The translations under genes and the position numbers were made by a program. DNA of 64,000 nt. It comes from Yuukianura sp. NJ FZ-2021 (Eukaryota). The notes below the pieces were generated by a model, which was given only the letters and a program-made list of their open reading frames with translations, was not told the DNA's origin and did not search any database. Below, piece after piece: positions 17,263 through 53,112 of the stretch. The stretch's first letter is position 1. Every line of letters starts with the position of its first letter. The DNA is taken from positions 8,742,001-8,806,000 of the forward strand of contig CM102286.1 in assembly GCA_046563655.1 (NCBI GenBank), read 5' to 3'.

Positions 17263-17754
17263 TATGAGGTCATGGACCTCATCTGAGAACAATTAATTAA
17301 GTTAAATTAAGTAGGGCGAATGCCCATAAGTGGTTGTCCCCGGTCTCCCTCCCTTTTTGTATCGGCAGAGCCGACAGAAGAACTCAAGCAGATTCCTCCT
17401 TCTGCTGCCACGCTGACAACAGCTCTCCAGGACTGCTCCGTCCATCTTCTCCAGGTCGCCTGCTTCCAGCCCAAAGGTCTCAGGTCAGGTCAGCAGTAGG
17501 CCAGTGATTGGCCTTGCCAGTGATTGGCATCGTCGTAGCCAGTGATTGGCTGTCCCCTTCCCCCGGATCTGGGTTATCGGTATGGCCCTTCAGGCCCGTT
17601 AGTTTAGCCCAAAGGGCTTAGTGTTTTAGTTAGTGTGTTCAATCGCTACGATTTGAATAAATCGTAGCTCGAGATCATCGGTTTTCGGTTGTTGTTTTCA
17701 TTTATTTCATAGTGAGGCTGGAGCAGTGCAGAGAGGCACTGCTCAAGCCTCATA
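17263..17754 (+). repeat. 3' LTR (492 bp)
   Basis: TATGAGG...CCTCATA followed by TSD AAAT. Confidence 0.95.
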
Positions 17755-20700: not shown

Positions 20701-23700
20701 TTTCTCCGAAAAATCCATTCTTTTCATTTAAAACTCATTAAAAAGTCATTCTGGGCTATCTGAGGAGTCAAAATTGCAAACCGAAATTATGGTTGAGAAA
20801 GCCCATCTGAAGTGTTCCAAGCTCAATTCTTCTCCGAAAAATCATTTTTTTTTCATTAAATACTCTTCAAAAAGTCATTCTGGGCTATCTGAGGAGTCAA
20901 AATTGCAAACCGAAATTATGCTTCTGAAAGCCCATATGAAGTGTTCCAAACTAAATTTTTCTCCGAAAAATCCATTCTTTTCATTTAAAACTCACCAAAA
21001 AGTCATTCTGGGCTATCTGAGGAGTCAAAATTGCAAACCGAAATTATGCTTCTGAAAGCCCATATGAAGTGTTCCAAACTCACTTTTTCTCCGAAAAATC
21101 CATTTTTTTCATTTAAAACTCCCCAAAAAGTCATTCTGGGCTATCTGAGGAGTCAAAATTGCAAACCGAAATTATGCTTCTGAAAGCCCATCTGAAGTGT
21201 TCCAAACTCACTTTTTCTCCGAAAAATCCATTTTTTTCATTTAAAACTCCCCAAAAAGTCATTCTGGGCTATTTGAGATGTCAAAATTGCAAACCGAAAT
21301 TATGGTTGTGAAAGCCCATCTGAAGTGTTCCAAGCTCAATTTTTCACCAAAAAATCATTTTTTTTTCATTAAATACTCTTCAAAAAGTCATTCCGGGCTA
21401 TCTGAGATGTCAAAATTGCAAACCGAAATTATGCTTCTGAAAGCCCATCTGCTGAAGTGTTCCAAACTCACTTTTTCCCCAAAAAATCCATTTTTTTCAT
21501 TTAAAGTTCCCCAAAAAGTCATTCTGGGCTATCTGAGGAGTCAAAATTGCAAACCGAAATTATGCTTCTGAAAGCCCATATGAAGTGTTCCAAACTAAAT
21601 TTTTCTCCGAAAAATCCATTCTTTTCATTTAAAACTCACCAAAAAGTCATTCTGGGCTATCTGAGGAGTCAAAATTGCAAACCGAAATTATGGTTGTGAA
21701 AGCCCATCTGAAGTGTTCCAAGCTCAATTTTTCACCAAAAAATCATTTTTTTCATTAAATACTCTTCAAAAAGTCATTCTGGGCTATCTGAGGAGTCAAA
21801 ATTGCAAACCGAAATTATGCTTCTGAAAGCCCATATGAAGTGTTCCAAACTCAATTTTTCTCCGAAAAATCCATTTTTTTCATTTAAAACTCACCAAAAA
21901 GTCATTCTGGGCTATCTGAGGAGTCAAAATTGCAAACCGAAATTATGCTTCTGAAAGCCCATCTGAAGTGTTCCAAACTCAATTTTTCACCAAAAAATCA
22001 TTTTTTTTTTCATTAAATACTCATCAAAAAGTCATTCTGGGCTATCTGAGGAGTCAAAATTGCAAACCGAAATTATGCTTCTGAAAGCCCATATGAAGTG
22101 TTCCAAACTAAATTTTTCTCCGAAAAATCCATTCTTTTCATTTAAAACTCACCAAAAAGTCATTCTGGGCTATCTGAGGAGTCAAAATTGCAAACCGAAA
22201 TTATGCTTCTGAAAGCCCATCTTAAGTGTTCCAAACTCACTTTTTTTCCGAAAAATCCATTTTTTTCATTTAAAACTCCCCAAAAAGTCATTCTGGGCTA
22301 TCTGAGGAGTCAAAATTGCAAACCGAAATTATGCTTCTGAAAGCCCATCTGAAGTGTTCCAAACTCAATTTTTCTCCGAAAAATTCATTTTTTTTTCATT
22401 TAAAACTCCACAAAGAGTCATTCTGGGCTATTTGAGATGTCAAAATTGCAAACCGAAATTATGCTTGTGAAAGCCCGTCTGAAGTGTTCCAAGCTCAATT
22501 TTTCACCAAAAACTCATTTTTTTTTCATTTAAAGCTCCCCAAAAAGTCATTCTGGGCTATCTGAGGAGTCAAAATTGCAAACCGAAATTATGCTTCTGAA
22601 AGCCCATATGAAGTGTTCCAAACTAAATTTTTCTCCGAAAAATCCATTCTTTTCATTTAAAACTCACCAAAAAGTCATTCTGGGCTATCTGAGGAGTCAA
22701 AATTGTAAACCGAAATTATGCTTGTGAAAGCCCGTCTGAAGTGTTCCAAGCTCAATTTTTCACCAAAAAATCCATTTTTTTCATTAAAAACTCTCCAAAA
22801 AGTCATTCCCGGCTATCTGAGGAGTCGAAATTGCAAACCGTTATAAAACTTGTTAATGCCCAACTGAAGTGTACAAATCTCAATTTTTCTCCGAAAAATG
22901 CATTTTTTTCATTTATAACTCACCAAAAAGTCATTCCGGGCAATCTGAGGAGTCAAAATTGCAAACCGAAATTATGCTTGTGAAGGCACATTTGAAGTGT
23001 ACCAATCTCAATTCTTCTCCGAAAAATCATTTTTTTTTCATTAAATACTCTTCAAAAAGTCATTCTGGGCTATCTGAGGAGTCAAAATTGCAACCCGAAA
23101 TTATGCTTCTGAAAGCCCATCTGAAGTGTTCCAAACTCAATTTTTCACCAAAAAATCATTTTTTTCATTAAATAGTCTTCAAAAAGTCATTCTGGGCTAT
23201 CTGAGGAGTCAAAATTGCAAACCGAAATTATGCTTCTGAAAGCCCATCTGAAGTGTTCCAAACTCACTTTTTCTCCGAAAAATTCATTTTTTTTTCATTT
23301 AAAACTCCCCAAAGAGTCATTCTGGGCTATTTGAGATGTCAAAATTGCAAACCGAAATTATGCTTGTGAAAGCCCGTCTGAAGTGTACCAAGCTCAATTT
23401 TTCACCAAAAAATCATTTTTTCATTTAAAACTCACCAAAAAGTCATTCTGGGCTATCTGAGGAGTCAAAATTGCAAACCGAAATTATGCTTCTGAAAGCC
23501 CATCTGAAGTGTTCCAAACTCAATTTTTCACTAAAAAATCCATTCTTTTCATTAAATACTCATCAAAAAGTCATTCTGGGCTATCTGAGGAGTCAAAATT
23601 GCAAACCGAAATTATGCTTCTGAAAGCCCATATGAAGTGTTCCAAACTCAATTTTTCTCCGAAAAATCCATTTTTTTCATTTAAAACTCACCAAAAAGTC

Positions 23701-26700
23701 ATTCTGGGCTATCTGAGGAGTCAAAATTGCAAACCGAAATTATGCTTCTGAAAGCCTATCTGAAGTGTGAAGTGTTCCAAACTCAATTTTTCACCAAAAA
23801 ATCATTTTTTTTCATTAAATACTCATCAAAAAGTCATTCTGGGCTATCTGAGGAGTCAAAATTGCAAACCGAAATTATGCTTCTGAAAGCCCATATGAAG
23901 TGTTCCAAACTAAATTTTTCTCCGAAAAATCCATTTTTTTCATTAAAAACTCTCCAAAAAGTCATTCCCGGCTATCTGAGGAGTCGAAATTGCAAACCGT
24001 TATAAAACTTGTTAATGCCCAACTGAAGTGTACAAATCTCAATTTTTCTCCGAAAAATGCATTTTTTTCATTTATAACTCACCAAAAAGTCATTCTGGGC
24101 AATCTGAGGAGTCAAAATTGCAAACCGAAATTATGCTTGTGAAGGCACATTTGAAGTGTACCAATCTCAATTCTTCTCCGAAAAATCATTTTTTTTTCAT
24201 TAAATACTCTTCAAAAAGTCATTCTGGGCTATCTGAGGAGTCAAAATTGCAAACCGAAATTATGCTTCTGAAAGCCCATATGAAGTGTTCCAAACTAAAT
24301 TTTTCTCCGAAAAATCCATTCTTTTCATTTAAAACTCACCAAAAAGTCATTCTGGGCTATCTGAGGAGTCAAAATTGTAAACCGAAATTATGCTTGTGAA
24401 AGCCCGTCTGAAGTGTTCCAAGCTCAATTTTTCACCAAAAAATCCATTTTTTTCATTAAAAACTCTCCAAAAAGTCATTCCCGGCTATCTGAGGAGTCGA
24501 AATTGCAAACCGTTATAAAACTTGTTAATGCCCAACTGAAGTGTACAAATCTCAATTTTTCTCCGAAAAATGCATTTTTTTCATTTAAAACTCACCATCA
24601 AGTCATTCTGGGCAATCTGAGGAGTCAAAATTGCAAACCGAAATTATGCTTGTGAAGGCACATTTGAAGTGTACCAATCTCAATTCTTCTCCGAAAAATC
24701 ATTTTTTTTCATTAAATACTCTTCAAAAAGTCATTCTGGGCTATCTGAGGAGTCAAAATTGCAAACCGAAATTATGCTTCTGAAAGCCCATCTGAAGTGT
24801 TCCAAACTCAATTTTTCACCAAAAAATCATTTTTTTTTTCATTAAATACTCATCAAAAAGTCATTCTGGGCTATCTGAGATGTCAAAATTGCAAACCGAA
24901 ATTATGCTTCTGAAAGCCCATCTGCTGAAGTGTTCCAAACTCACTTTTTCCCCGAAAAATCCATTTTTTTCATTTAAAGTTCCCCAAAAAGTCATTCTGG
25001 GCTATCTGAGGAGTCAAAATTGCAAACCGAAATTATGCTTCTGAAAGCCCATATGAAGTGTTCCAAACTAAATTTTTCTCCGAAAAATCCATTCTTTTCA
25101 TTTAAAACTCACAAAAAAGTCATTCTGGGCTATCTGAGGAGTCAAAATTGCAAACCGAAATTATGGTTGTGAAAGCCCATCTGAAGTGTTCCAAACTCAA
25201 TTTTTCACCAAAAAATCATTTTTTTTTTCATTAAATACTCATCAAAAAGTCATTCTGGGCTATCTGAGGAGTCAAAATTGCAAACCGAAATTATGCTTCT
25301 GAAAGCCCATATGAAGTGTTCCAAACTCACTTTTTCTCCGAAAAATCCATTTTTTTCATTTAAAACTCCCCAAAAAGTCATTCTGGGCTATCTGAGGAGT
25401 CAAAATTGCAAACCGAAATTATGCTTCTGAAAGCCCGTCTGAAGTGTTCCAAGCTCACTTTTTCCCCGAAAAATCCATTTTTTTCATTTAAAGTTCCCCA
25501 AAAAGTCATTCTGGGCTATCTGAGGAGTCAAAATTGCAAACCGAAATTATGCTTCTGAAAGCCCATATGAAGTGTTCCAAACTAAATTTTTCTCCGAAAA
25601 ATCCATTCTTTTCATTTAAAACTCACCAAAAAGTCATTCTGGGCTATCTGAGGAGTCAAAATTGCAAACCGAAATTATGGTTGTGAAAGCCCATCTGAAG
25701 TGTTCCAAGCTCAATTTTTCACCAAAAAATCATTTTTTTCATTAAATACTCTTCAAAAAGTCATTCTGGGCTATCTGAGGAGTCAAAATTGCAAACCGAA
25801 ATTATGCTTCTGAAAGCCCATATGAAGTGTTCCAAACTCAATTTTTCTCCGAAAAATCCATTTTTTTCATTTAAAACTCACCAAAAAGTCATTCTGGGCT
25901 ATCTGAGCAGTCAAAATTGCAAACCGAAATTATGCTTCTGAAAGCCCATCTGAAGTGTTCCAAACTCACTTTTTCTCCGAAAAATCCATTTTTTTCATTT
26001 AAAACTCACCAAAAAGTCATTCTGGGCTATCTGAGGAGTCAAAATTGCAAACCGAAATTATGCTTCTGAAAGCCCATATGAAGTGTTCCAAACTAAATTT
26101 TTCTCCGAAAAATCCATTTTTTTCATTTAAAACTCCCCAAAAAGTCATTCTGGGTTATCTGAGGAGTCAAAATTGCAAACCAAAATTATGCTTCTGAAAG
26201 CCCATCTGAAGTGTTCCAAACTCAATTTTTCACCAAAAAATCATTTTTTTTTCATTAAATAGTCTTCAAAAAGTGATTCTGGGCTATCTGAGGAGTCAAA
26301 ATTGCAAACCGAAATTATGCTTGTGAAGGCACATCTGAAGTGTACCAATCTCAATTTTTCTCCGAAAAATCCTTTTTTTTTCATTTATAACTCACCAAAA
26401 AGTCATTCTAGGCTATCTGAGGAGTCAAAATTGCAAACCGAAATTCTGCTTGTGAAGGCACATCTGAAAAGTTCCAAGCTCAATTTTTCACCAAAAACTC
26501 CATTTTTTTCATTTAAAACTCCCCAAAAAGTCATTCTGGGTTATCTGAGGAGTCAAAATTGCAAACCGAAATTATGCTTCTGAAAGCCCATCTGAAGTGT
26601 TCCAAACTCAATGTTTTTCCGAAAAATCCATTTTTTTCATTAAATACTCTTCAAAAAGTCATTCTGGGCTATCTGAGATGTCAAAATTGCAAACCGAAAT

Positions 26701-29700
26701 TATGCTTCTGAAAGCCCATATGAAGTGTTCCAAACTCACTTTTTCTCCGAAAAATCCATTCTTTTCATTTAAAACTCACCAAAAAGTCATTCTGGGTTAT
26801 CTGAGGAGTCAAAATTGCAAACCAAAATTATGCTTGTGAAGGCACATTTGAAGTGTACCAATCTCAATTCTTCTCCGAAAAATCATTTTTTTTTCATTAA
26901 ATACTCTTCAAAAAGTCATTCTGGGCTATCTGAGGAGTCAAAATTGCAAACCGAAATTATGCTTCTGAAAGCCCATCTGAAGTGTTCCAAACTCAATTTT
27001 TCACCAAAAAATCATTTTTTTCATTAAATAGTCTTCAAAAAGTCATTCTGGGCTATCTGAGGAGTCAAAATTGCAAACCGAAATTATGCTTCTGAAAGCC
27101 CATCTGAAGTGTTCCAAACTCACTTTTTCTCCGAAAAATTCATTTTTTTTTCATTTAAAACTCCCCAAAGAGTCATTCTGGGCTATTTGAGATGTCAAAA
27201 TTGCAAACCGAAATTATGCTTGTGAAAGCCCATCTGCTGAAGTGTTCCAAACTCACTTTTTCTCCGAAAAATCCATTTTTTTCATTTAAAACTCACCAAA
27301 AAGTCATTCTGGGCTATCTGAGGAGTCAAAATTGCAAACCGAAATTATGCTTCTGAAAGCCCATATGAAGTGTTCCAAACTAAATTTTTCTCCGAAAAAT
27401 CCATTTTTTTCATTTAAAACTCCCCAAAAAGTCATTCTGGGTTATCTGAGGAGTCAAAATTGCAAACCAAATTATGCTTCTGAAAGCCCATCTGAAGTGT
27501 TCCAAACTCAATTTTTCACCAAAAAATCATTTTTTTTTTCATTAAATAGTCTTCAAAAAGTGATTCTGGGCTATCTGAGGAGTCAAAATTGCAAACCGAA
27601 ATTATGCTTGTGAAGGCACATCTGAAGTGTACCAATCTCAATTTTTCTCCGAAAAATCCTTTTTTTTTTCATTTATAACTCACCAAAAAGTCATTCTGGG
27701 CTATCTGAGGAGTCAAAATTGCAAACCGAAATTCTGCTTGTGAAGGCACATCTGAAAAGTTCCAAGCTCAATTTTTCACCAAAAACTCCATTTTTTTCAT
27801 TTAAAACTCCCCAAAAAGTCATTCTGGGTTATCTGAGGAGTCAAAATTGCAAACCGAAATTATGCTTCTGAAAGCCCATCTGAAGTGTTCCAAACTCAAT
27901 GTTTTTCCGAAAAATCCATTTTTTTCATTAAATACTCTTCAAAAAGTCATTCTGGGCTATCTGAGATGTCAAAATTGCAAACCGAAATTATGCTTCTGAA
28001 AGCCCATATGAAGTGTTCCAAACTCACTTTTTCTCCGAAAAATCCATTCTTTTCATTTAAAACTCCCGAAAAAGTCATTCTGGGCTATCTGAGGAGTCAA
28101 AATTGCAACCCGAAATTATGCTTCTGAAAGCCCATCTGAAGTGTTACCAATCTCAATTCTTCTCCGAAAAATCATTTTTTTTTCATTAAATACTCTTCAA
28201 AAAGTCATTCTGGGCTATCTGAGGAGTCAAAATTGCAAACCGAAATTATGCTTCTGAAAGCCCATCTGAAGTGTTCCAAACTCAATTTTTCACCAAAAAA
28301 TCATTTTTTTCATTAAATAGTCTTCAAAAAGTCATTCTGGGCTATCTGAGGAGTCAAAATTGCAAACCGAAATTATGCTTCTGAAAGCCCGTCTGAAGTG
28401 TTCCAAACTCACTTTTTCTCCGAAAAATCCATTTTTTTCATTTAAAACTCACCAAAAAGTCATTCCGGGCAATCTGAGGAGTCAAAATTGCAAACCGAAA
28501 TTATGCTTGTGAAGGCACATCTGAAGTGTACCAATCTCAATTCTTCTCCGAAAAATCATTTTTTTTTTCATTAAATACTCTTCAAAAAGTCATTCTGGGC
28601 TATCTGAGGAGTCAAAATTGCAAACCGAAATTATGCTTCTGAAAGCCCATCTGAAGTGTTCCAAACTCAATTTTTCACCAAAAAATCATTTTTTTCATTA
28701 AATAGTCTTCAAAAAGTCATTCTGGGCTATCTGAGGAGTCAAAATTGCAAACCGAAATTATGCTTCTGAAACCCCATCTGAAGTGTTCCAAACTCAATTT
28801 TTCACCAAAAAATCATTTTTTTTTTCATTAAATACTCATCAAAAAGTCATTCTGGGCTATCTGAGATGTCAAAATTGCAAACCGAAATTATGCTTCTGAA
28901 AGCCCATCTGCTGAAGTGTTCCAAACTCACTTTTTCCCCGAAAAATCCATTTTTTTCATTTAAAGTTCCCCAAAAAGTCATTCTGGGCTATCTGAGGAGT
29001 CAAAATTGCAAACCGAAATTATGCTTCTGAAAGCCCATATGAAGTGTTCCAAACTAAATTTTTCTCCGAAAAATCCATTCTTTTCATTTAAAACTCACCA
29101 AAAAGTCATTCTGGGCTATCTGAGGAGTCAAAATTGCAAACCGAAATTATGGTTGTGAAAGCCCATCTGAAGTGTTCCAAACTCAATTTTTCACCAAAAA
29201 AATCATTCTTTTTCATTAAATACTCATCAAAAAGTCATTCTGGGCTATCTGAGGAGTCAAAATTGCAAACCGAAATTATGCTTCTGAAAGCCCATATGAA
29301 GTGTTCCAAACTCACTTTTTCTCCGAAAAATCCATTTTTTTCATTTAAAACTCCCCAAAAAGTCATTCTGGGCTATCTGAGGAGTCAAAATTGCAAACCG
29401 AAATTATGCTTCTGAAAGCCCGTCTGAAGTGTTCCAAGCTCACTTTTTCCCCGAAAAATCCATTTTTTTCATTTAAAGTTCCCCAAAAAGTCATTCTGGG
29501 CTATCTGAGGAGTCAAAATTGCAAACCGAAATTATGCTTCTGAAAGCCCATATGAAGTGTTCCAAACTAAATTTTTCTCCGAAAAATCCATTCTTTTCAT
29601 TTAAAACTCACCAAAAAGTCATTCTGGGCTATCTGAGGAGTCAAAATTGCAAACCGAAATTATGGTTGTGAAAGCCCATCTGAAGTGTTCCAAGCTCAAT

Positions 29701-32700
29701 TTTTCACCAAAAAATCATTTTTTTCATTAAATACTCTTCAAAAAGTCATTCTGGGCTATCTGAGGAGTCAAAATTGCAAACCGAAATTATGCTTCTGAAA
29801 GCCCATATGAAGTGTTCCAAACTCAATTTTTCTCCGAAAAATCCATTTTTTTCATTTAAAACTCACCAAAAAGTCATTCTGGGCTATCTGAGGAGTCAAA
29901 ATTGCAAACCGAAATTATGCTTCTGAAAGCCCATCTGAAGTGTTCCAAACTCACTTTTTCTCCGAAAAATCCATTTTTTTCATTTAAAACTCACCAAAAA
30001 GTCATTCTGGGCTATCTGAGGAGTCAAAATTGCAAACCGAAATTATGCTTCTGAAAGCCCATATGAAGTGTTCCAAACTAAATTTTTCTCCGAAAAATCC
30101 ATTCTTTTCATTTAAAACTCACCAAAAAGTCATTCTGGGCTATCTGAGGAGTCAAAATTGCAAACCGAAATTATGCTTCTGAAAGCCCATATGAAGTGTT
30201 CCAAACTCACTTTTTCTCCGAAAAATCCATTTTTTTCATTTAAAACTCCCCAAAAAGTCATTCTGGGTTATCTGAGGAGTCAAAATTGCAAACCAAAATT
30301 ATGCTTCTGAAAGCCCATCTGAAGTGTTCCAAACTCAATTTTTCACCAAAAAATCATTTTTTTCATTAAATAGTCTTCAAAAAGTCATTCTGGGCTATCT
30401 GAGGAGTCAAAATTGCAAACCGAAATTATGCTTGTGAAGGCACATCTGAAGTGTACCAATCTCAATTTTTCTCCGAAAAATCCTTTTTTTTCATTTAAAA
30501 CTCCCCAAAAAGTCATTCTGGGCTATCTGAGGAGTCAAAATTGCAAACCGAAATTCTGCTTGTGAAGGCACATCTGAAAAGTTCCAAGCTCAATTTTTCA
30601 CCAAAAACTCCATTTTTTTCATTTAAAACTCCCCAAAAAGTCATTCTGGGTTATCTGAGGAGTCAAAATTGCAAACCGAAATTATGCTTCTGAAAGCCCA
30701 TCTGAAGTGTTCCAAACTCAATGTTTTTCCGAAAAATCCATTTTTTTCATTAAATACTCTTCAAAAAGTCATTCTGGGCTATCTGAGATGTCAAAATTGC
30801 AAACCGAAATTATGCTTCTGAAAGCCCATATGAAGTGTTCCAAACTCACTTTTTCTCCGAAAAATCCATTCTTTTCATTTAAAACTCACCAAAAAGTCAT
30901 TCTGGGTTATCTGAGGAGTCAAAATTGCAAACCAAAATTATGCTTCTGAAAGCCCATCTGAAAAGTTCCAAGCTCAATTTTTCACCAAAAACTCCATTTT
31001 TTTCATTTAAAACTCCCCAAAAAGTCATTCTGGGTTATCTGAGGATTCAAAATTGCAACCCGAAATTATGCTTCTGAAAGCCCATATGAAGTGTTCCAAA
31101 CTCACTTTTTCTCCGAAAAATCCATTCTTTTCATTTAAAACTCACCAAAAAGTCATTCTGGGTTATCTGAGGAGTCAAAATTGCAAACCAAAATTATGCT
31201 TCTGAAAGCCCATCTGAAGTGTTCCAAACTCAATTTTTCACCAAAAACTCCATTTTTTTCATTTAAAACTCCCCAAAAAGTCATTCTGGGTTATCTGAGG
31301 AGTCAAAATTGCAACCCGAAATTATGCTTCTGAAAGCCCATCTGAAAAGTTCCAAGCTCAATTTTTCACCAAAAACTCCATTCTTTTCATTTAAAACTCA
31401 CCAAAAAGTCATTCTGGGCTATCTGAGGAGTCAAAATTGCAAACCGAAATTATGCTTCTGAAAGCCCATATGAAGTGTTCCAAACTCAATTTTTCTCCGA
31501 AAAATCCATTTTTTTCATTTAAAACTCACCAAAAAGTCATTCTGGGCTATCTGAGGAGTCAAAATTGCAAACCGAAATTATGCTTCTGAAAGCCCATCTG
31601 AAGTGTTCCAAACTCACTTTTTCTCCGAAAAATCCATTTTTTTCATTTAAAACTCACCAAAAAGTCATTCTGGGCTATCTGAGGAGTCAAAATTGCAAAC
31701 CGAAATTATGCTTCTGAAAGCCCATATGAAGTGTTCCAAACTAAATTTTTCTCCGAAAAATCCATTCTTTTCATTTAAAACTCACCAAAATGTCATTCTG
31801 GGCTATCTGAGGAGTCAAAATTGCAAACCGAAATTATGCTTCTGAAAGCCCATATGAAGTGTTCCAAACTCACTTTTTCTCCGAAAAATCCATTTTTTTC
31901 ATTTAAAACTCCCCAAAAAGTCATTCTGGGTTATCTGAGGAGTCAAAATTGCAAACCAAAATTATGCTTCTGAAAGCCCATCTGAAGTGTTCCAAACTCA
32001 ATTTTTCACCAAAAAATCATTTTTTTTTTCATTAAATAGTCTTCAAAAAGTGATTCTGGGCTATCTGAGGAGTCAAAATTGCAAACCGAAATTATGCTTG
32101 TGAAGGCACATCTGAAGTGTACCAATCTCAATTTTTCTCCGAAAAATCCTTTTTTTTTCATTTATAACTCACCAAAAAGTCATTCTAGGCTATCTGAGGA
32201 GTCAAAATTGCAAACCGAAATTCTGCTTGTGAAGGCACATCTGAAAAGTTCCAAGCTCAATTTTTCACCAAAAACTCCATTTTTTTCATTTAAAACTCCC
32301 CAAAAAGTCATTCTGGGTTATCTGAGGAGTCAAAATTGCAAACCGAAATTATGCTTCTGAAAGCCCATCTGAAGTGTTCCAAACTCAATGTTTTTCCGAA
32401 AAATCCATTTTTTTCATTAAATACTCTTCAAAAAGTCATTCTGGGCTATCTGAGATGTCAAAATTGCAAACCGAAATTATGCTTCTGAAAGCCCATATGA
32501 AGTGTTCCAAACTCACTTTTTCTCCGAAAAATCCATTCTTTTCATTTAAAACTCACCAAAAAGTCATTCTGGGTTATCTGAGGAGTCAAAATTGCAAACC
32601 AAAATTATGCTTCTGAAAGCCCATCTGAAAAGTTCCAAGCTCAATTTTTCACCAAAAACTCCATTTTTTTCATTTAAAACTCCCCAAAAAGTCATTCTGG

Positions 32701-33316
32701 GTTATCTGAGGAGTCAAAATTGCAACCCGAAATTATGCTTCTGAAAGCCCATATGAAGTGTTCCAAACTCACTTTTTCTCCGAAAAATCCATTCTTTTCA
32801 TTTAAAACTCACCAAAAAGTCATTCTGGGTTATCTGAGGAGTCAAAATTGCAAACCAAAATTATGCTTCTGAAAGCCCATCTGAAGTGTTCCAAACTCAA
32901 TTTTTCACCAAAAACTCCATTTTTTTCATTTAAAACTCCCCAAAAAGTCATTCTGGGTTATCTGAGGATTCAAAATTGCAACCCGAAATTATGCTTCTGA
33001 AAGCCCATATGAAGTGTTCCAAACTCACTTTTTCTCCGAAAAATCCATTCTTTTCATTTAAAACTCACCAAAAAGTCATTCTGGGTTATCTGAGGAGTCA
33101 AAATTGCAAACCAAAATTATGCTTCTGAAAGCCCATCTGAAAAGTTCCAAGCTCAATTTTTCACCAAAAACTCCATTTTTTTCATTTAAAACTCCCCAAA
33201 AAGTCATTCTGGGTTATCTGAGGAGTCAAAATTGCAACCCGAAATTATGCTTCTGAAAGCCCATCTGAAGTGTTCCAAACTCAATGTTTTTCCGAAAAAT
33301 CCATTTTTTTCATTAA
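17755..33316. repeat. ~128-bp satellite array, block 4
   Basis: About 120 uninterrupted monomers with recurring variant series. Confidence 0.98.
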
Positions 33317-33495
33317 GGAGAGACTGGAGGTCAATAAAAACAACGCCAAAGAACGTTTTGTAGACATGGCAACGACTGAAAATTTAGAATTTACAACCTA
33401 CGTAATCATGAAAAACCCGAACGGGTGGATTCTTTACGATTGAAATTTTGCACAACGTAAGCTTACGTCCCGATCAATCCGTTTCATAGTCGTGC

Positions 33496-33943
33496 ATGAG
33501 GTCAATTCGTAAGCATGACCAATTCGTAATCAGAAAAGTCGTAAGCACCGTCAATTCGTAAGCATATCTTTTCGTATCCTTGGGTTTCCGTTTCGTAGAG
33601 TTTGGTTTTTAGGTTTTCTTTTGTCAAAATTTGGGAAATAAGGCTATCACCATCTAAAACGCAGTTTTTAGCGAAATGTAAGTCATACTGCCCACAATTC
33701 TTAATTGAATTTAGCTTATGCTATGTTAGTTTAAGTCAGGTTAGGTTTTTTAGGTTATTTTTTCTTAAAAATTTTGAAATTGAAATAGGGTTTACGAGAC
33801 TTACGAAAGCACTGCTTACGATTTGGGCTGTTTCCGAATTGACCATGCTTACGAGTTGTCCCTACTTATGAATTGTCGGCTTACGAAATTGAGTTTACAA
33901 ATTGACTGTTTACGAATTTGAGCTTACAAATTGACCTGGAACC
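33496..33943. mobile_element. MULE/foldback-like MITE with subterminal repeats; left end probably deleted
   Basis: GTCAATTCGTAAGC-like units on the left and inverted GCTTACGAATTGAC-like units on the right, ending ...ACCTGGAACC. Flanked by GTCGTGC(A/G)TG at 33489 and 33944. Confidence 0.6.
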
Positions 33944-34327
33944 GTCGTGCGTGCTCTAAATTGTATTATAAAATGTCTTCAGGAAAATATGAAAGCATGA
34001 ATACTATTTCGAAAAATAACACATGCATATAATTTTATTTCTGGGGATTATGTTTGAATGACAAGTGTGGCCAGTGAAGCTGCAGAAGACAAAGTCGTAA
34101 AATGTGTTGACAAACATGATTTCTCTCTGGAAGATTGAAAAACATTGAGACTATTTTAAAGCATATTTATTAGACAAAATTATAACGAACCAAATTTGAA
34201 TACTAATGACGAATAATAGTAGTAATGATAATAGTAATAATACAATACATACAGCTATAGTTATTACTATTTCCTGATATCCAATTTAGTATGATTAGTT
34301 TGGCCGAAGACACAAACATGCTAGGAT

Positions 34328-37040
34328 TTATAAGTTTTCTGGAACCTCATCTGTTGACCTACGCTTCCTTTCGAGACGTGACTTTTGGATTGCTTCGAGT
34401 CTGTAGTTTGGTTGTTTGATGGGCATCGACCGTGCGACTCGCGAGTTGACGATCTCTGGCCCCAAGTCTTCACGGTAGAATTTCAGCAGTTTGGTGGTCA
34501 TCTTATTCCATAGACAGCCAGTTGCATCATCACGATAAATTCGCTCAATGTAGAGAGGAAAGTCGACAATTCCCTTGGACGTATTCCGAAAACTGTAGAC
34601 TACAAAGTCACACCATTGCCTTCCACTGACATGCAATTGCATCACGATTTGACTAGAGAAAACACATAAAACAATTCGCAACCTTGTACTCAAACCATAT
34701 TAATGCTCGGCTAAATTCTGAAAGACATACCGATAGTACTTGTGGTTCTTCTTCAATTCCAAAACTTGTTCGCTTCCAAGAGCAGTTGAGCTTGATGCCA
34801 ATCCTAAGAAGGAAGTCTTTTTCATGATCGAAGGCATCTCTTTCGGAGCAAATCCAATCATGGATTGTGGACATTTCACTTCGATAAGGCCATCTTCTCC
34901 AACCAATCCATCTGGTGAAGCTGCAAAGACCCCATGATCGATACTGACAAAAAGACCAGACGGTCTGACGACGACATTTGTTTCTTTCTCATAAGCGCGT
35001 ATTGCATAGGCTTCGTACTTCTTCCCGTGTGTAATGCCTGCAAGGTGGGATAAGCACTTGGGATACAGAAGCTTGGATACGACGGACGAGTTGTTCGTTG
35101 AGTCCTTTAGAGAAAAAACCTCCCCAGCTACAGATGCCGTTATCCTCCCACCTCGCTCCACTGTCCACATTTCGGATTCCGATTGGAGCGTAGTACCTTG
35201 TAGAATTCTCTTCTGTTGTTCTATGGTGACATTTTTGCTCTGCATGAGCTGCACAACCTGATCCCGAACAGTATCATCATCAAAGTCTTCGTCAGCTGCG
35301 TTGGGACCGTAATCTGCATCTGGTTGATTGGGAGTGTTTGGTTTACAAGTCTTCCTCAGCTTCTGCTTACTCTTCTTTGCGGTTTGTGCTTTTTTTGCAG
35401 CATTTAGTGCGGCAACTTTCCACCGTCTTGATGGACTTCGATGGTTCAAACTTTTGAATGCATCCGCATAGAAACAAGCTCCTTTGTTGAAGGATAGTGC
35501 TGAAGTGGAAGCTTTGAGCTTCCATCCTCCCCTCTGTATGACGTTCAGCCGCTTTCCATGATTAAATTTTGCCACTCTGCTCATAAAAGACTCACAAATG
35601 TTGGAGGTCAAGTTTGGCATTAGTCTTGAAGAAATGGAGGCAATCTGTTTGAATCGATGGATGACATCGCTCCAGAGCGACGTATCTTGCAGGGCAACAA
35701 ACAAGTTCTCATTTTTAGTTGTTCCATCGCAAAAGTATGAAGCACAGTTCTGATGTCGCCCGAAGGTATGGAAAGGAATGTTTTCAATGTCCTTCCGTAA
35801 CAGACTATCATTTCTGTGTGACTCTTGGCTTCTGTAACTGATGGCTGCTCGAAGTGACTTGCCCATTCTGTGCATCTGGGATTTCAAAACCTGGCGTTCT
35901 CTAAGACTATACATTTTGGTAGCCTTCGTAGCAGCAATGCAAAACTTATTCAAGTTCTTCACAATGTGATTGACGCATTCAGCCTTCTCGATTTGAATTC
36001 CAGGGTAGATTTGTGAATTCACCAGAGTATGATAAACCGAGGAGTCACCATCAGCGATCAGAGTCTTGAAGACAAGTCCATGCATTTCAATACTTGCTCT
36101 GAAGCCTTCTTGTATGATTCGAGTTTCCATCACAGTTGCGCTGACAGCTTCATCCCAGTTCTTGTAACAGATATGTTCCTTTGGGGGTTGACCAGAGCTA
36201 CTGGCTCTTTTGCAGACGATGCAGAACATGTTCTTTATCCCAATGTAAAGCAGTTTTTTGCTTCTGGCGCCAATAAGGACAGCGACGCCGCCTTTGGATT
36301 TGAAAGAATGGCCGTAGGATCTCGTGCACCACGCACCATCGGCGTACACGGAAGTACATGGGTATGTGATACCCTCAATGACGACAGTGTCTTTCGCAGC
36401 TTCAGCTAATTGGACCTCCAACTTTCCATTTTCAAGTATCTGCTCGGCAAGTGTTTCATCCCATTGTTTGGTCAGTTTCTCTAAGTGCCTGCTGTATGTC
36501 TTGAACACTGGAAAAGGAATATCCATGACTGTCATCATGTGTTTGGAAGCTTCGTAGTTGCTAGCTCCAGCGCATGTGCCCCACACAAGACTCTCGTTCA
36601 CCGGTAGAGTTACCCCAGCTTCTTCCTTGTCCGACGAAATCCAATTTTTCCAATCACATGAAGTACAGCGAACTAACATGCGGCTTCGAAGGCCCATTCT
36701 TGTTTCCTTAAACCAAAGTAACTTCATTTTAATGCTGTAACCTACTAGAGACAGCTAACAACAAGATGATGTAAACTCTTACTTTGTCAAACACCAACAC
36801 AGGATTGGAACAAATTGCTCCGTGGCGTGATGCTGCATTCAAGGACAAGAGCCATTGGGAGACTGTAATTATTCGCCTGCCGGAAATACTCTTTTCGTTT
36901 GAGCCGCATTGAGCTGGGGTTGCGGAAGGCACGTCTTCAATGGTTCCCTTTTGATGTTGGTTGTTCCTCCATTTTCGATATCCAGTCTTTTTGGCAGTTG
37001 CAACTTTCCTCGAAAAATAGCGCTTGCGTTGTCTGCCCAT
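34328..37040 (-). CDS. DDE transposase (Kolobok/Mutator-like) fused to a C-terminal YqaJ/lambda-exonuclease domain; 3 coding exons, ~852 aa
   Basis: Exons 37040-36783, 36706-34731 and 34652-34328 with GT-AG introns of 76 and 78 bp give one open frame (FDK|ETR; YYR|QIVMQ). DDE motifs: YADGAWCTRSYGH, CIVC, IADGDSS, ECVNH, NICES. YqaJ motifs: W..ER.GRITAS, ASPDGLVGEDGLIEVKCP, QIVMQL...WCDFVV. Confidence 0.88.
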
Positions 37041-38370
37041 CCTGAAATAACGAACATCGTTAGTAAAGATGGAAAACATTGCCGAATTTTCAATCCCAAG
37101 TCCAACAACCTAACCTAATCGAAATACGCACTCTAACAAAAACCCCAAGGAACAGGGAACCTCTACGCACCGTGTAGTTGTGGTCAAGACGTCAGCAAAT
37201 GATATAGATGACGCAGAATACTGCGAAAAGAGAAGATGCCCCTAATAGTCTGGAGAAGTCAATGCCCTAACAACATTTGGCCAGCATTCGTGGAAACCAA
37301 GGGGTTACGTAATTCGCAAAATTCTTCACATTTCATATAAAGGTTGGCGATTGCAGAGGACTGCATGTGCCACAGACGAAAAAAAAAATGGACAGCGTAA
37401 CCCCAAGGCCTGGCCAAATGTGAGTTTTGGACCAGACTCTAGGCACGCTCAGACTTAGGCCATCATAGAAATTCTGGTCCCCTCCCTCCGGAGTATGTGA
37501 GAACATCAAACGACGAGGAAGCGAGGAGAAGTCTGGTCCTGGATGTATGGTGCCAAGTATTTAAAAATTTCAAGTGGGGGCAGCAATTAAGCCGCTTGAC
37601 GTTTCCTTCTGGGTTGGACCCCCTCGCGGGGGGGAGGGGGGGGGCAAATATCTATGGTTAATATGCCAAACTTGCTCCTCTCATGCAAATGAAGAACTTT
37701 TGCTTGTCTAGTCTATAACACGGGAACTTATCCTATGTGTTAAGCGCATGGGAAAACTCGGGAACATATACTTGTTTTTAGCATGGCTGAAAAGCGGGAA
37801 ATTTGAGAAAAATCGGAATCGGTTATACTAAAGTACCTATGCATATATAAGGGGCCTAGATATTTCTTTTCTAATATTTGTTTTCTAAAGCTGGACTTAC
37901 GAGACGTAAGTTTTCCCGTGATTTTTTTTCACCCCAATTTCGACAAATTTGTGTAATTTTTTGAAAACTTTCGCCATTTTTGATGTAAAAATTGACATAC
38001 TTGGACGTAGTTACGGGAAAAAGTCCTAAAAAAGTTTTTATGGTCGAAAAAGTTTTTAAAACTTTTTTAAAAGTCCGCCAAGTGCTAAAAGGGCTAAAAA
38101 GTTTTTACGTCATTATCCGATCTATGGTCATAAGGATGATTAATTTTTGATTGTGATTTGTAACACAGACATAAACATAAAGCACATACAAACATGAAGT
38201 ACCTCATACTTTCGCTACTTAATAATTGTTAGGCAGCGGGACAGAGTGACATGATTACCTTATAAAGTAACTTTACTATCCTTGACAGAGGGACAGTGAC
38301 ATGAGGACATCATAAAGGAACTTTGACAGGGGGACAGAATGACATAGGGACATCATAAAATATGTTTGCT

Positions 38371-38745
38371 TAAGTCTGTCAGATGGACACAGTGACATTG
38401 GAACTCATAAAGTAGCTTTGGTAAGTCCGACAGATGGACAGAGTGACATTGGAACTCATAAAGTAGCTTTGGTAAGTCCGACAGATGGACAGAGTGACAT
38501 TGGAACTCATAAAGTAGCTTTGGTAAGTCCGACAGATGGACACAGTGACATTGGAACTCATAAAGTAGCGTTGGTAAGTCTGACAGATGGACACAGTGAC
38601 ATTGGAACTCATAAAGTAGCTTTGGTAAGTCTGACAGATGGACACAGTGACATTGGAACTCATAAAGTAGCTTTGGTAAGTCTGACAGTTGGACAGAGTG
38701 ACTTTGGAACGCTTAAAGTAGCTATGGTGACTTTGTCCGAAGGAC
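38371..38745. repeat. 51-bp minisatellite (~7 copies, with degenerate copies upstream to ~38240)
   Basis: Unit cagatggacacagtgacattggaactcataaagtagctttggtaagtccga at 38380, 38431, 38482 and onward. Confidence 0.95.
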
Positions 38746-38826
38746 AGACGGACACATGGACATGTCCAACATGTGTTCTTGGTACTTTAGTATAATGCTT
38801 GCAGCCTTTTCACATGCTGGTAAGAC

Positions 38827-39394
38827 TAGGGCTGTTCAAGTTCCGGTTCCAGATCCGGAACTTTTACGGTTCCAGTTCCGTTTCCGGATCCGTTTCCTAA
38901 ATATTTGGAACCGGAACTTATTTTCGGATCCGGTTCGGATCCAGTTCCATTGTATGATGGAACCGGTTCTTCCGGCATTTGGAACTGGAACCGGTTAACT
39001 TCATTATCGCCAAATTCAAACAGAAAATTTTGCTTAAAAAGCTGGTATGCATCACCAAAACAATTTAACGAAAAATGAATTGACAAAGTACAAGTGGCTT
39101 ATAAGTCCCTTGGTGAATATTTATATACGATAACTAAACCTAACAATTTAACTAATATACAGATTAGTTAAATTGTTAGGTTTAGATACCCTTTTGCAAT
39201 TTATGAACGGGACAAATGCATTTTCTGCTTTTATTCCGGTTCCAGTTCCGGTTCGGTTCGGATCCGGTTCCGGTTCGGTTCGTTTCCGGTTCTGAATTTT
39301 TGAACTAGTTCGGTTCCGTTACCAAATTTATCAGTTCCAGTTCCGGATCCGTTTCCATGTGGATCCGATCCGATCCGGAACTTGAACAGCCCTA
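38827..39394. mobile_element. hAT-family MITE (568 bp)
   Basis: Perfect 20-bp TIR TAGGGCTGTTCAAGTTCCGG, 8-bp TSD GGTAAGAC (38819-38826 and 39395-39402), and many subterminal CCGGTT/GGATCC repeats. Confidence 0.95.
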
Positions 39395-39685
39395 GGTAAG
39401 ACAGGCAAATGTTGCAGCTTTTTAGACCGAGCCATGCTAAATACATGCAAAACTTCTCGAGTTTTCCCATGCCCTTAACACATACGAAAAGTTCCGTTTT
39501 TAGACCGAGCCAATTTTGTGAGGGTCATTTCCCCGATTTTTATATTGAAAAGGCTGAAGACGTTGACCTTTGACCCAGTAAAAGCTCACGGCTCCAGATG
39601 ATTTGATAAACATGAATTGACATGAGGTATGAGATATCGATTGGTGAAAACCGGGATGAAATCGGTCCAGTATTTTTACATCTCT

Positions 39686-39859
39686 AAGTACCATTGCAAT
39701 GATAGGCACTATGTTAAGGAACCCATCAAATGCTCCGCTCGAAAGTACATTGACTACCACATGACATGGATTCAGGATCAACTGGGTGACGAAACACGGT
39801 ATCCATTCTCATAACATTTCGTAGAAGTTGTTCAATTAGGAGAACTACATCCTAACACA
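39686..39859 (+). pseudogene. MOB1: Decayed fragment of MOB kinase activator 1 (MOB1/mats)
   Basis: VKEPIKCSARKYIDYHMTWIQDQLGDETRYP matches MOB1 IKKPIKCSAPKYIDYLMTWVQDQLDDETLFP. After a stop, HFVEVVQLGELHPNT matches HF.EVV.LGEEAHLNT. Confidence 0.85.
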
Positions 39860-40283
39860 ATTACCTGCTTCTAATAAATTAAACTATACGAATAAGGAGA
39901 AAGAGATTACCTGAAGAAGTGACCTTGACTGGCCAGAGACTGAAGACGATGACACTTGACTCGATTACGTCTGGATATGAATAGGATGACCAGGACACGG
40001 ACTGACAACTGATTGATTGATTATTTATTGACTTTCGGTGATACACCCTGATCAACACGGACTGACAACCGACTGACAAGACAGTGGACGAACAAAGAAA
40101 GAGACTGACTTCTTTGAATTTTGAAAACTGAAATTCGGAGATCATTCGCGCGGATTTTTCTAAAAGGTCATGCGCAGTGGGTGAGCCACACTTGAGACTA
40201 AATTCTCACGTCGCCCCAACTCTTAGTGACGTATTCCGTAAATAGTAAATTGTAAACAAGAAATTCGTGAACTCTGACCCAAT

Positions 40284-40600
40284 CTTCTGGTGCACTTCCT
40301 GACTGATTGGTAAGACCCTCAGAAAACTACGACCACACTTTTCGCATTAGCGCACGCCAATACACAGCACACCTGACGATTATTTGAAGAAAACAGGACC
40401 CTTCGCCCAGAAAACTTAGGTTTTCTGGGTTTTCCCAGGATTTCAGAAACATCTTCCAGAAAACCTAAGTTTTCTGGGCGAAGGGTCCTGTTTTCGTCAA
40501 ATAATCGTCAGGTGTGCTGTTTATTAGCGTGTGCTAATGCGAAAAGTGTGGTCGTAGTTTTCTGAGCGTCTTACCAATCAGTCAGGAAGTGCACCAGAAG
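40284..40600. repeat. Long palindrome (145-bp arms, 27-bp spacer)
   Basis: 40284-40428 is the reverse complement of 40456-40600 with a few mismatches. Confidence 0.95.
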
Positions 40601-41183
40601 TCTTATGGGAAATTGGGTAATAAGCGAATCTGTCCATCGTAATCTTAAATACTCTTCAAAAAGTCATTCTGGGCTATCTGAGATGTCAAAATTGCAAACC
40701 GAAATTATGCTTCTGAAAGCCCATATGAAGTGTTCCAAACTCAATTTTTCTCCGAAAAATCCATTTTTTTCATTTAAAACTCCCCAAAAAGTCATTCTGG
40801 GTTATCTGAGGAGTCAAAATTGCAAACCGAAATTCTGCTTGTGAAGGCACATCTGAAAAGTTCCAAGCTCAATTTTTCACCAAAAACTCCATTTTTTTCA
40901 TTTAAAACTCCCCAAAAAGTCATTCTGGGCTAACTGAGGAGTCAAAATTGCAACCCGAAATTATGCTTCTGAAAGCCCATCTGAAGTGTTCCAAACTCAA
41001 TTTTTCACCAAAAAATCATTTTTTTCATTAAATAGTCTTCAAAAAGTCATTCTGGGCTATCTGAGGAGTCAAAATTGCAAACCGAAATTATGTTTGTGAA
41101 AGCCCATCTGAAGTGTACTAACCTCAATTTTCTTCGAAAAAATCTATTTTTTTCATTAGAAACTCTACAAAAGTCATTCCCGG

Positions 41184-41687
41184 TGTTATGAAACAGTCAA
41201 TTTCCATAATAACGAGAGTTCACTAGAGTTCATTGCCAAATTGAATTGTCACTCTAAAAGTAGCTCATTGTTATACTTTTAACAAACACAACCTATGTAC
41301 AACTTGTCTTTTGTTGTAGTAATTAGAAGTTAGGCCTACAAATGATTTACATATATTCCAAGTAGGGTAACTTCTGACTCTATTCTACTCCAGTGGTTTC
41401 CGGTTGAATCCCTATAAAAAGGGCTCAGTCCGGCCAGCAAGATTCATTCTGTTTTCTGCTCTTGACCTCTGGTCAATAGGACTTAGTGTCCTACGCCTAC
41501 TCCTATGCCTTGTCACAAACTTTGTCCGTCAAAATAAAGTTCATTAACCTTTCCTATTGCAAAACATTGCAAAAGACATTAGTAGTGAAGATTTGTTTCA
41601 TTTATTTTATCATTTCACTACATTTGGTGGTACGAGCTGCTGAATCCTATGGCTTCCACAGGAAGCGAAAATGCGAAAAGCGAAAAT
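41184..41687 (+). mobile_element. Truncated LTR retrotransposon: 439-bp LTR, PBS and possible gag start (long form, copy 1)
   Basis: TGTTATGAAA...TTTCACTACA (41184-41622) with CTATAAAA and AATAAA, then TTTGGTGGTACGAG and ATG GCT TCC ACA GGA (MASTGSENAKSEN). It joins the satellite at GAAAAT. Confidence 0.75.
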
Positions 41688-45833: not shown

Positions 45834-46338
45834 TGAAACAGTCAAAATTGCAAACCGAAATAACGAAAGTTCACTAGAGTTCATTGCCAAATTGAATTGT
45901 CACTCTAAAAGTAGCTCATTGTTATACTTTTAACAAACACAACCTATGTACAACTTGTCTTTTGTTGTAGTAATTAGAAGTTAGGCCTACAAATGATTTA
46001 CATATATTCCAAGTAGGGTAACTTCTGACTCTATTCTACTCCAGTGGTTTCCGGTTGAGTCCCTATAAAAAGGGCTCAGTCCGGCCAGCAAGATTCATTC
46101 TGTTTTCTGCTCTTGACCTCTGGTCAATAGGACTTAGTGTCCTACTCCTACTCCTATGCCTTGTCACAAACTTTGTCCGTCAAAATAAAGTTCATTAACC
46201 TTTCCTATTGCAAAACATTGCAAAAGACATTAGTAGTGAAGATTTGTTTCATTTATTTTATCATTTCACTACATTTGGTGGTACGAGCTGCTGAATCCTA
46301 TGGCTTCCACAGGAAGCGAAAATGCGAAAAGCGAAAAT
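45834..46338 (+). mobile_element. LTR fragment, long form, copy 2 (5' end mosaic with satellite)
   Basis: Near-identical to 41184-41687. Confidence 0.8.
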
Positions 46339-52300: not shown

Positions 52301-52608
52301 CACCAAAAAATCATTTTTTTTTTCATTTAAAACTCACCAAAAAGTCATTCTGGGCTATCTGAGGAGTCAAAATTGCAAACCGAAATTATGCTTCTGAAAG
52401 CCCATCTGAAGTGTTCCAAACTCAATTTTTCACCAAAAAATCATTTTTTTCATTAAATAGTCTTCAAAAAGTCATTCTGGGCTATCTGAGGAGTCAAAAT
52501 TGCAAACCGAAATTATGCTTGTGAAAGCCCGTCTGAAGTGTACCAAGCTCAATTTTCTTCGAAAAAATCCATTTTTTTCATTAGAAACTCTCCAAAAGTC
52601 ATTCCCGG

Positions 52609-53112
52609 TGTTATGAAACAGTCAATTTCCATAATAACGAGAGTTCACTAGAGTTCATTGCCAAATTGAATTGTCACTCTAAAAGTAGCTCATTGTTATA
52701 CTTTTAACAAACACAACCTATGTACAACTTGTCTTTTGTTGTAGTAATTAGAAGTTAGGCCTACAAATGATTTACATATATTCCAAGTAGGGTAACTTCT
52801 GACTCTATTCTACTCCAGTGGTTTCCGGTTGAGTCCCTATAAAAAGGGCTCAGTCCGGCCAGCAAGATTCATTCTGTTTTCTGCTCTTGACCTCTGGTCA
52901 ATAGGACTTAGTGTCCTACTCCTACTCCTATGCCTTGTCACAAACTTTGTCCGTCAAAATAAAGTTCATTAACCTTTCCTATTGCAAAACATTGCAAAAG
53001 ACATTAGTAGTGAAGATTTGTTTCATTTATTTTATCATTTCACTACATTTGGTGGTACGAGCTGCTGAATCCTATGGCTTCCACAGGAAGCGAAAATGCG
53101 AAAAGCGAAAAT
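52609..53112 (+). mobile_element. LTR fragment, long form, copy 3
   Basis: Same junctions as copy 1 (attcccgg|TGTTATG). Confidence 0.8.

Follow-up and report, generated by a model that had tools for sequence, protein, structure and literature searches.

Transposons of the Kolobok superfamily generate TTAA duplications and have 5'-RR...YY-3' termini (PMC9587614). Their transposases share the C/DxxH signature with MuDR, and most of them contain a zinc finger between this signature and the last E, which is absent from MuDR, P, and hAT (PMC9587614). In KolobokP, E, D, and 5, a CCHC finger is located after the first D (PMC9587614). Here, we describe a gene in a 64,000-nucleotide (nt) stretch of DNA from Yuukianura sp. 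NJ FZ-2021 (assembly GCA_046563655.1, contig CM102286.1, positions 8,742,001-8,806,000, forward strand). This stretch is referred to as the window, and all coordinates are positions within it. The gene lies on the minus strand and is predicted to encode a DDE transposase followed by a YqaJ/lambda-type exonuclease, as proposed in an earlier reading of the same DNA (the original prediction). Judged from its sequence, it is probably a transposon gene of the KolobokE lineage of the Kolobok superfamily and a genuine transposase-exonuclease fusion. We assign a probability of about 0.8 to this reading, which covers the identity and the fusion and not the role of the nuclease.

KolobokE is represented in Repbase by the families KolobokE_1_TC, KolobokE_2_TC, KolobokE_3_LHu, KolobokE_1_SpEx, and KolobokE_1_LGig (PMC9587614), and five KolobokE cores, from ant, Tribolium (two), moth, and Lottia, are printed in the supplement of the same paper. 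KolobokD has a DEDDh nuclease and some Dada elements have a DEDDy nuclease, and in both cases the authors suggest a function in 3'-end processing (PMC9587614 for Kolobok). ISL2EU, a member of the PHIS superfamily, is a eukaryotic DDE transposon with a YqaJ-type exonuclease (PMC4122938, PMC4482050).

Structure of the fusion gene

The gene spans positions 37040-34328 of the minus strand and is predicted to be composed of three exons and two GT-AG introns, which together give a stop-free frame of 852 amino acids (aa). The listing of open reading frames (ORFs) contains three corresponding stop-free pieces on the minus strand, at 36729-37109, 34700-36754 (684 aa), and 34328-34699. The original prediction had joined three such pieces through two GT-AG introns into about 852 aa, and our homology-based model reproduces both its coordinates and its length. 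Complete DDE, CxxH, and PD-(D/E)xK motifs, which had been reported from the joined frame, are all present in the model. The N-terminus, described as basic and resembling a nuclear localization signal (NLS), contains 12 lysines or arginines in its first 40 residues.

Exon 2 spans all of the DDE transposase core as well as the exonuclease domain through and past its ExK motif. Since both domains lie on one uninterrupted 684-aa ORF, the fusion is independent of splicing. The unspliced frame already shows the complete transposase together with two thirds of the nuclease; only the N-terminus and the nuclease's last third depend on removal of the introns. Transposases of the family have an N-terminal zinc-binding motif, whose first half (H...C) is carried by exon 1; the exon's stretch around GRRI...H...C can be aligned to the homologues. 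Sequence and homology thereby give the protein a zinc-binding region for DNA recognition next to its basic N-terminus. When exon 1 and exon 3 were searched alone against Pfam, no family was matched at E <= 1.

GT-AG combinations that are open by chance are plentiful, 27 around intron 1 and 14 around intron 2, and the splice sites were therefore chosen by homology, with 16 full-length homologues aligned to the model. The donor AAA/GTAAGA at 36782 and the acceptor TTTAAG at 36707 join exons 1 and 2 without a gap relative to the homologues. The length of intron 1 is not a multiple of three, and the two exons are in frame only once it is removed. A 61-nt intron 1 with the acceptor at 36722 was dropped, as it leaves five extra residues opposite a gap in the homologues; of the 15 homologues with sequence at this place, 14 have a gap of five columns and P0004 has one of three. 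A 38-nt intron 1 ending in ...TCTCTAG (36745), which was implicit in the original prediction, is not among the stop-free in-frame combinations. Intron 2 splits the codon of R745, just ahead of the QxxxQ motif of the nuclease. The nuclease domain of the homologues runs over this junction without a gap, and the motif Y-Y-x-Q...Q...CDF resumes in exon 3. One diverged paralogous contig (joint 34662>34786) has the same length across intron 2, where it is too different in sequence to be aligned. A scan for bacterial promoters and terminators gave fewer sites than shuffled sequences and is irrelevant for a eukaryotic gene.

Transposase domain

The transposase core is an RNase-H-fold DDE domain that contains the C/DxxH signature as well as two zinc fingers. 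Residues 13-342 of the 684-aa ORF match the Pfam family PF20700, "Mutator-like transposase", with an E-value of 1.9e-70. In the numbering of the 852-aa model, the catalytic residues are D209, D305/D307 (in the sequence ADGDSS at 304-309), and E458. The C/DxxH signature, C330xxH333, lies after the second D and before the E. A CCHC finger formed by C248, C251, H264, and C266 lies downstream of the first D, and its pattern recurs in 178 of 197 homologues. The second finger, of the HHCC type (H399/H404/C407/C412), lies between C330xxH333 and E458 and is invariant in all 19 sequences of the alignment that was used to assess residue conservation. The same alignment has G210 and W212 beside D209, the four residues of the CCHC finger, D305-G-D307, C330xxH333, and N455xxE458 as invariants, and D209 itself is nearly invariant.

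The structure of the unspliced 684-aa ORF was predicted using AlphaFold (mean predicted local distance difference test score, pLDDT, 75.3), and its fold was compared to known structures using Foldseek and VIA, the latter giving Z scores. The core of the predicted structure is best matched by the transposase of ISCth4, a member of the IS256 family (Foldseek E-value 1.2e-4; Z 13.8, root-mean-square deviation 4.1, 261 aligned residues). IS256 is a bacterial relative of Mutator. The Z scores of the model are lower for the Hermes transposase (9.7) and for retroviral integrase cores (about 9). No solved transposase was matched by sequence when the family profile was searched against the PDB.

Exonuclease domain

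Based on sequence and profile matches, the C-terminal domain is a PD-(D/E)xK nuclease of the lambda-exonuclease/YqaJ type, with its catalytic residues all in place. The match to PF09588, "YqaJ", covers residues 530-631 of the same ORF (E-value 5.4e-12, 46.7 bits versus a gathering cut-off of 22) and positions 2-116 of the 150 positions of the profile; the domain is cut by intron 2. The nuclease residues are R604, T609/S611, E651, D685, E695-x-K697, and Q746/Q750. All 19 aligned sequences share the R, T, S, E, D, E, and K, and G647 and A654 are likewise invariant. At the second Q of QxQ, the window protein and the three homologues closest to it have V. Among the homologues whose match covers the motif, 118 of 128 contain PD[GAS]...ExK, and xDG...ExK was identified by eye in seven of the remaining ten.

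The family profile finds LHK-Exo (PDB 3syy, 6.3e-23), lambda exonuclease (1avq, 5.1e-14), and Mimivirus R354 (1e-10) in the PDB. The C-terminal part of the ORF model resembles lambda exonuclease with Z scores of 9.4-9.5 over 149-153 residues. In the profile alignment, the invariant arginine of the nuclease is aligned with an arginine of lambda exonuclease, which binds the 5' phosphate. The profile and structure searches proposed as checks of the original prediction thus recovered both domains: LHK-Exo (6.3e-23) and lambda exonuclease (Z 9.4-9.5) for the nuclease, and ISCth4 (Z 13.8) for the transposase. The Pfam matches (PF20700, 1.9e-70; PF09588, 5.4e-12) bear out the identities that it had given to the two halves.

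Membership of the KolobokE lineage

The homologues of the window protein were collected in a word-indexed search (n = 55) and by scanning 1.84 billion cluster representatives exhaustively with HMMER. Both Pfam accessions are carried by 31 of the 55 proteins of the former set, according to precomputed Pfam annotation, and the named sources include ticks, a springtail, a moth, an ant, a bee, Artemia, a coral, and a clam. The latter search places 422 cluster representatives in the family at E <= 1e-30. Both domains, defined as a match to each half of the window ORF at E <= 1e-5, are present in 141 of 197 retrieved homologues, and the transposase precedes the nuclease in all 141. Among proteins of at least 750 aa, the proportion with both domains is 81 of 85. 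The closest of the retrieved homologues are 35-38% identical to the window protein over both domains, and a fragment comprising the transposase only is 45% identical.

The five published KolobokE cores, compared by eye, have their motifs in the same order as the window protein. The ant homologue P0021, which matches the window protein with an E-value of 1.1e-81, appears by eye to be about two-thirds identical to KolobokE_3_LHu. Of seven Kolobok and KolobokE features that were looked for, six are present at this locus, and terminal inverted repeats are the one that was not found. The statement in the original prediction that similar fusions occur in some Kolobok lineages agrees with the description of KolobokE in PMC9587614 and with the TTAA flanks of the block that holds the gene. 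Its remark that such proteins are biochemically uncharacterised also agrees with our findings, as no biochemical work on the KolobokE lineage was found in the literature searched. The original prediction had itself held that a close match to a characterised family would remove the novelty, and by this measure most of it is gone: the gene matches a named family, KolobokE, in which this architecture is the norm (422 representatives at E <= 1e-30).

The protein family called "Mutator-like" (PF20700) by Pfam and KolobokE by Repbase appears to be one and the same. For annotation, the two names conflict. The fusion is the rule in the family. In the literature searched, we found no description of a fusion of a Mutator-type transposase with YqaJ and did not meet the accession PF20700. 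A scan of metagenome contigs for related loci, made with a single protein, gave 205 pattern matches, none of which was confirmed as a relative by tblastn.

Insertion site and interior of the block

The gene is held by a block of non-satellite sequence inserted in a tandem satellite array (Table 1). The bounds of the block are 33315-40644 according to the satellite mask and 33317-40644 as read by eye. The left flank ends with ...TTTTTTTCA-TTAA, the block begins with GGAGAGAC... and finishes with ...CGTAATC, after which the satellite continues in phase with TTAA-ATACTC. In empty-site contigs, which consist of uninterrupted satellite, ...TTTTTTTCA immediately precedes position 40645. Reading duplications against the satellite discriminates between elements, since it gives TA for an element with terminal inverted repeats at 627-1566 and a 5-bp repeat for a long terminal repeat (LTR) retrotransposon in the window. 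The GG...TC termini of the block fit the RR...YY pattern, a weak indication with a chance expectation of about 1 in 16.

Table 1 Positions of the gene, its parts, and the block that contains it
Feature	Position	Strand	Remarks
Exon 1	37040-36783	-	residues 1-86; ATG at 37040; basic NLS-like N-terminus
Intron 1 (predicted)	36782-36707	-	76 nt, GTAAGA...TTTAAG; acceptor picked through gap-free homologue alignment
Exon 2	36706-34731	-	residue 87 to first two bases of codon 745; within 684-aa ORF
Intron 2 (predicted)	34730-34653	-	78 nt, GTATGT...pyrimidine tract...TCTCTAG; in-frame TAA inside
Exon 3	34652-34331	-	residues 746-852; last third of nuclease domain and basic tail
Stop codon TAA	34330-34328	-	end of 852-aa frame
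AATAAA polyadenylation-like signal	34166-34171	-	about 160 nt past the stop; pattern match only
Transposase region	35591-36887	-	about residues 52-458; span includes intron 1
Lambda-exonuclease/YqaJ-type PD-(D/E)xK nuclease	34400-35179	-	about residues 596-829; span includes intron 2
Non-satellite block holding the gene	33317-40644		7,328 bp; GG...TC termini; patchy interior
Left TTAA of target-site duplication	33313-33316		flank reading against satellite
Right TTAA of target-site duplication	40645-40648		satellite monomer resumes in phase

The stretch occurs in five sequencing runs, none of which is recorded as RNA. Copies of the gene and of the block were compared using DNA contigs from four runs; X1 and X2 represent one sample, and the run X5 is labelled as another organism. 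The contigs over the gene are identical to it (0 differences in 334 nt), differ by about 2% (25/1,441), or differ by about 11-14% (46/428 and 46/335). The pieces from X5 are near-identical, with 1-9 differences per 193-529 nt. Among the 21 listed variant sites in the coding sequence (CDS), 16 fall on the third base of a codon and 15 leave the amino acid unchanged (binomial p 7e-5). Such a pattern is typical of a transposon family whose coding sequence is under selection, and it argues against a single domesticated gene.

A contig joint 33418>39898 with two filler letters, observed in X1 and X2, joins both end regions of the block in a shorter form, which suggests an internal-deletion derivative that retained both ends. 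Contigs of all four runs match the first 140 nt of the block (33317-33456) and then share a different sequence; the left block end is therefore also joined to something else elsewhere in the genome.

To the right of the gene, the interior is a patchwork, in which an imperfect inverted pair of 78 nt lies at 37711/39505. A 568-bp hAT-like miniature inverted-repeat transposable element (MITE) occupies 38827-39394, with inverted repeats of 23-24 nt that start with TAGGGCTG and an 8-bp duplication, GGTAAGAC. The contig joint 38811>39407 may be the empty site of this MITE. A 51-bp minisatellite of 7.9 copies with 92% matches lies at 38324-38728. Near the right end of the block, positions 40284-40600 form a near-perfect palindrome of 317 bp, whose 145-nt arms are 97% complementary and enclose a loop of 27 nt; many contigs break around it.

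Alternative interpretations

Several observations weigh against the reading of the locus as a complete KolobokE transposon. Alignment of the first 300 nt of the block with the reverse complement of its last 300 nt scores 16, and shuffled sequences score 17.8 ± 2.3, so that no terminal inverted repeats are detectable. Neither terminus recurs in the window at up to three mismatches, no pair among the TTAA-anchored ends (5 x 19 sites) exceeds 11/24 matches, and a general inverted-repeat scan provided no credible pair of ends for a gene-bearing element. The satellite contains approximately one TTAA per monomer, and identical flanks would result from two insertions at TTAA and a later loss of complete monomers between them. 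Both introns are predicted from homology, the published KolobokE sequences were compared by eye, and the analyzed variant sites are the 21 listed inside the CDS, with another 514 across 8 kb unlisted. PF20700, "Mutator-like", is the only transposase family matched in Pfam, and the fold nearest to the model core is that of ISCth4 (Z 13.8 versus at most 9.7 for Hermes and others).

The block may be chimeric and the window copy immobile. A patchwork that preserved the gene intact in a copy without one or both of its true ends is a serious possibility, compatible with the KolobokE identity, as the missing inverted repeats bear on the integrity of the window copy and not on the protein family. It would agree with the lack of inverted repeats at the block ends, with an interior that holds the MITE, the minisatellite, the palindrome, and other repeats, and with the many contig joints and loose ends in the block, such as that after 33456 in all four runs. 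The frequency of TTAA in the satellite makes its phase compatible with two insertion events, whereas the flanks and the phase exactly match a single one. Against a patchwork also speak the joint 33418>39898, which connects both ends in one shorter form, and the definition of Kolobok termini as RR/YY only (PMC9587614), under which short or imperfect repeats are still possible. A domesticated host gene that derives from a transposon of this kind, has lost its mobility, and is retained for a function in the cell would likewise do without inverted repeats. It would account for the intact 852-aa frame with its predicted introns, for the mainly synonymous variation, and for the near-identical pieces in X5. 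We consider domestication very improbable, given the several diverged versions of the gene within one sample, its position inside a satellite array amid other transposons, the TTAA flanks of the block, the joint resembling a deletion derivative with both ends, and the retention of all catalytic residues of the transposase. The Pfam match and the resemblance to ISCth4 would instead be expected of a true Mutator-like element (MULE) of the animal, Phantom-like type that carries an exonuclease, in which case KolobokE would be a branch of MuDR. The C/DxxH signature fits this equally well, being common to Kolobok and MuDR (PMC9587614). Since no Kolobok or eukaryotic MULE structure is among the matches, the fold cannot separate the two. 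The duplication is the 4-bp TTAA, compared to 8-11 bp for MULE groups (PMC6446971), and long inverted repeats are missing. The zinc finger between C/DxxH and E is absent from MuDR (PMC9587614), no other Pfam family of the MULE type is matched at E <= 1, and the available parts of the MULE survey mention no nuclease in any group (PMC6446971). A Mutator-like origin is unlikely, and assignment to KolobokE remains the preferred reading; through the Pfam label and the IS256-like fold, a Mutator affiliation persists as a matter of naming or of deep relationship.

Proposed role of the exonuclease

By analogy to other C/DxxH transposases, we hypothesize that the DDE domain would excise the element by double-strand breaks and join its 3' ends to a TTAA target. 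In the MULE Muta1, excision proceeds via a hairpin on the flanking DNA (PMC5499845). The fused nuclease would act in the 5'->3' direction on a 5'-phosphorylated double-strand end and could resect the break left at the donor site. If the break were then repaired from a homologous template, either the sister chromatid or a further copy, the element would be restored and cut-and-paste transposition would yield a net gain of copies. Within the tandem satellite, single-strand annealing between monomers could close the gap. Resection of the donor break is the role that we tentatively prefer, with less than even confidence. No annealing protein is encoded in the 7,328-bp block. The original prediction had suggested that coupled cutting and resection could promote homology-driven repair, gene capture, or satellite rearrangement, which is pure inference.

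It is also conceivable that the nuclease does not resect, and instead cuts the second strand (the 5' end) in the manner of TnsA or processes the ends of the transposon itself. Tn7, in which a DDE protein is combined with a nuclease of the restriction-enzyme fold (TnsA), provides a precedent for such a second-strand cutter, and fusion to the transposase would hold the nuclease at the transposon ends. Other transposons also bear end-processing nucleases of different kinds, such as the DEDDh type of KolobokD and the DEDDy type found in some Dada. We regard this function as unlikely, because the domain belongs specifically to the lambda-exonuclease/YqaJ family and retains the invariant arginine aligned to that of lambda exonuclease, and because related C/DxxH transposases make both cuts via a hairpin (PMC5499845). 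A bolder proposal extends the donor-break resection that we prefer. The exonuclease would be obligatory in the KolobokE cycle and resect the donor break or opened flank hairpins, so that the element is effectively replicative and satellite monomers are gained or lost by annealing; the element would move without inverted-repeat ends; and, in view of the IS256-like core, Kolobok and Mutator would form one structural superfamily. We consider this combination improbable.

Several unrelated eukaryotic DNA transposons have acquired end-processing nucleases: a YqaJ type is borne by ISL2EU and KolobokE, a DEDDh type by KolobokD, and a DEDDy type by some Dada. An apparently intact and constrained KolobokE gene offers a construct for asking whether a tethered 5'->3' exonuclease steers the repair of the excision site. 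This question bears on the gain of copies by cut-and-paste elements and possibly on genome-engineering tools.

Satellite and other elements in the window

Within the window, the gene is ordinary, another transposon in a satellite array. The satellite has a 128-bp period, fills most of the window in a single orientation, and displays higher-order periods of 256 and 384 bp, with 82-93% matches between copies. Its arrays are located at 1-626, 1567-7965, 8965-11458, 17754-33314, 40645-41179, 41683-62450, and 62599-64000.

The 940-bp element at 627-1566 has terminal inverted repeats of 30-36 nt starting from CAGGGGGGGG and a TA duplication, and is a non-autonomous element of the Tc1/mariner-like type. 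Positions 11459-17753 contain an LTR retrotransposon with the domain order of Ty3/gypsy. Its reverse transcriptase, RNase H, and integrase are encoded in a 1,045-aa ORF at 13505-16642, upstream of which lies a 365-aa ORF that has no Pfam match. Over 290 nt, the two direct terminal repeats share 97% identity, and the element is flanked by the 5-bp repeat AAAAT.

A 503-bp sequence recurs in the satellite with 99-100% identity, at 41180-41682, 45862-46333, and 52605-53107, and in five 148-bp pieces at 54873-55020, 57152-57299, 58890-59037, 62451-62598, and 63326-63473. The right end of the copies is constant and the left truncation variable (503, 472, or 148 nt). The sequence is either a retroelement truncated at its 5' end or part of a higher-order satellite unit. 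Another non-satellite insert, of 996 bp, at 7966-8961, starts with an (AATC)n run; a 260-aa stop-free frame on the minus strand at this insert (8215-8997) has no Pfam match.

Comparison with known systems

Phage and bacterial exonucleases of the lambda type are free-standing toroidal trimers partnered with an annealing protein. Lambda exonuclease and LHK-Exo (1avq and 3syy; PF09588) have a common fold with the nuclease domain described here (Z 8.0-9.5) and share with it the motifs R...TAS, G...E, PD, ExK, and YxxQ. The window domain, in contrast, is the C-terminus of a transposase. Among transposases, the predicted structure resembles the Mutator-like/IS256 group (ISCth4, 6xgw and 6xgx) in its RNase-H-fold DDE core with C/DxxH. 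The window element differs from this group by its 4-bp TTAA duplication instead of 8-11 bp, its extra zinc fingers, and its lack of long inverted repeats, and an exonuclease is not reported for any MULE group in PMC6446971. ISL2EU also combines a DDE transposase with YqaJ, which however is encoded in a separate second ORF; its transposase is PIF/Harbinger-like with a THAP domain, and it targets A|AT|T instead of TTAA. KolobokD and some Dada elements share with the window gene the combination of a C/DxxH-type DDE transposase with an exonuclease. Their nucleases are of the DEDD (DnaQ-like) type and act 3'->5', the opposite polarity to the 5'->3' activity of the lambda type.

KolobokE is distinguished from the window copy by the inverted repeats, which are not detectable in the latter, and the identity to the retrieved two-domain homologues is only 35-38%. 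It resembles the window gene in the DDE core with C/DxxH, the CCHC finger, and the zinc finger before the last E, and in a lambda-exonuclease-like nuclease located downstream of the transposase in one protein. The window element and KolobokE also have in common the TTAA duplication and the RR...YY termini. The architecture is already known and is the norm in a widespread invertebrate lineage, of which the window gene, as far as can be told from its sequence, is a fairly divergent further member.

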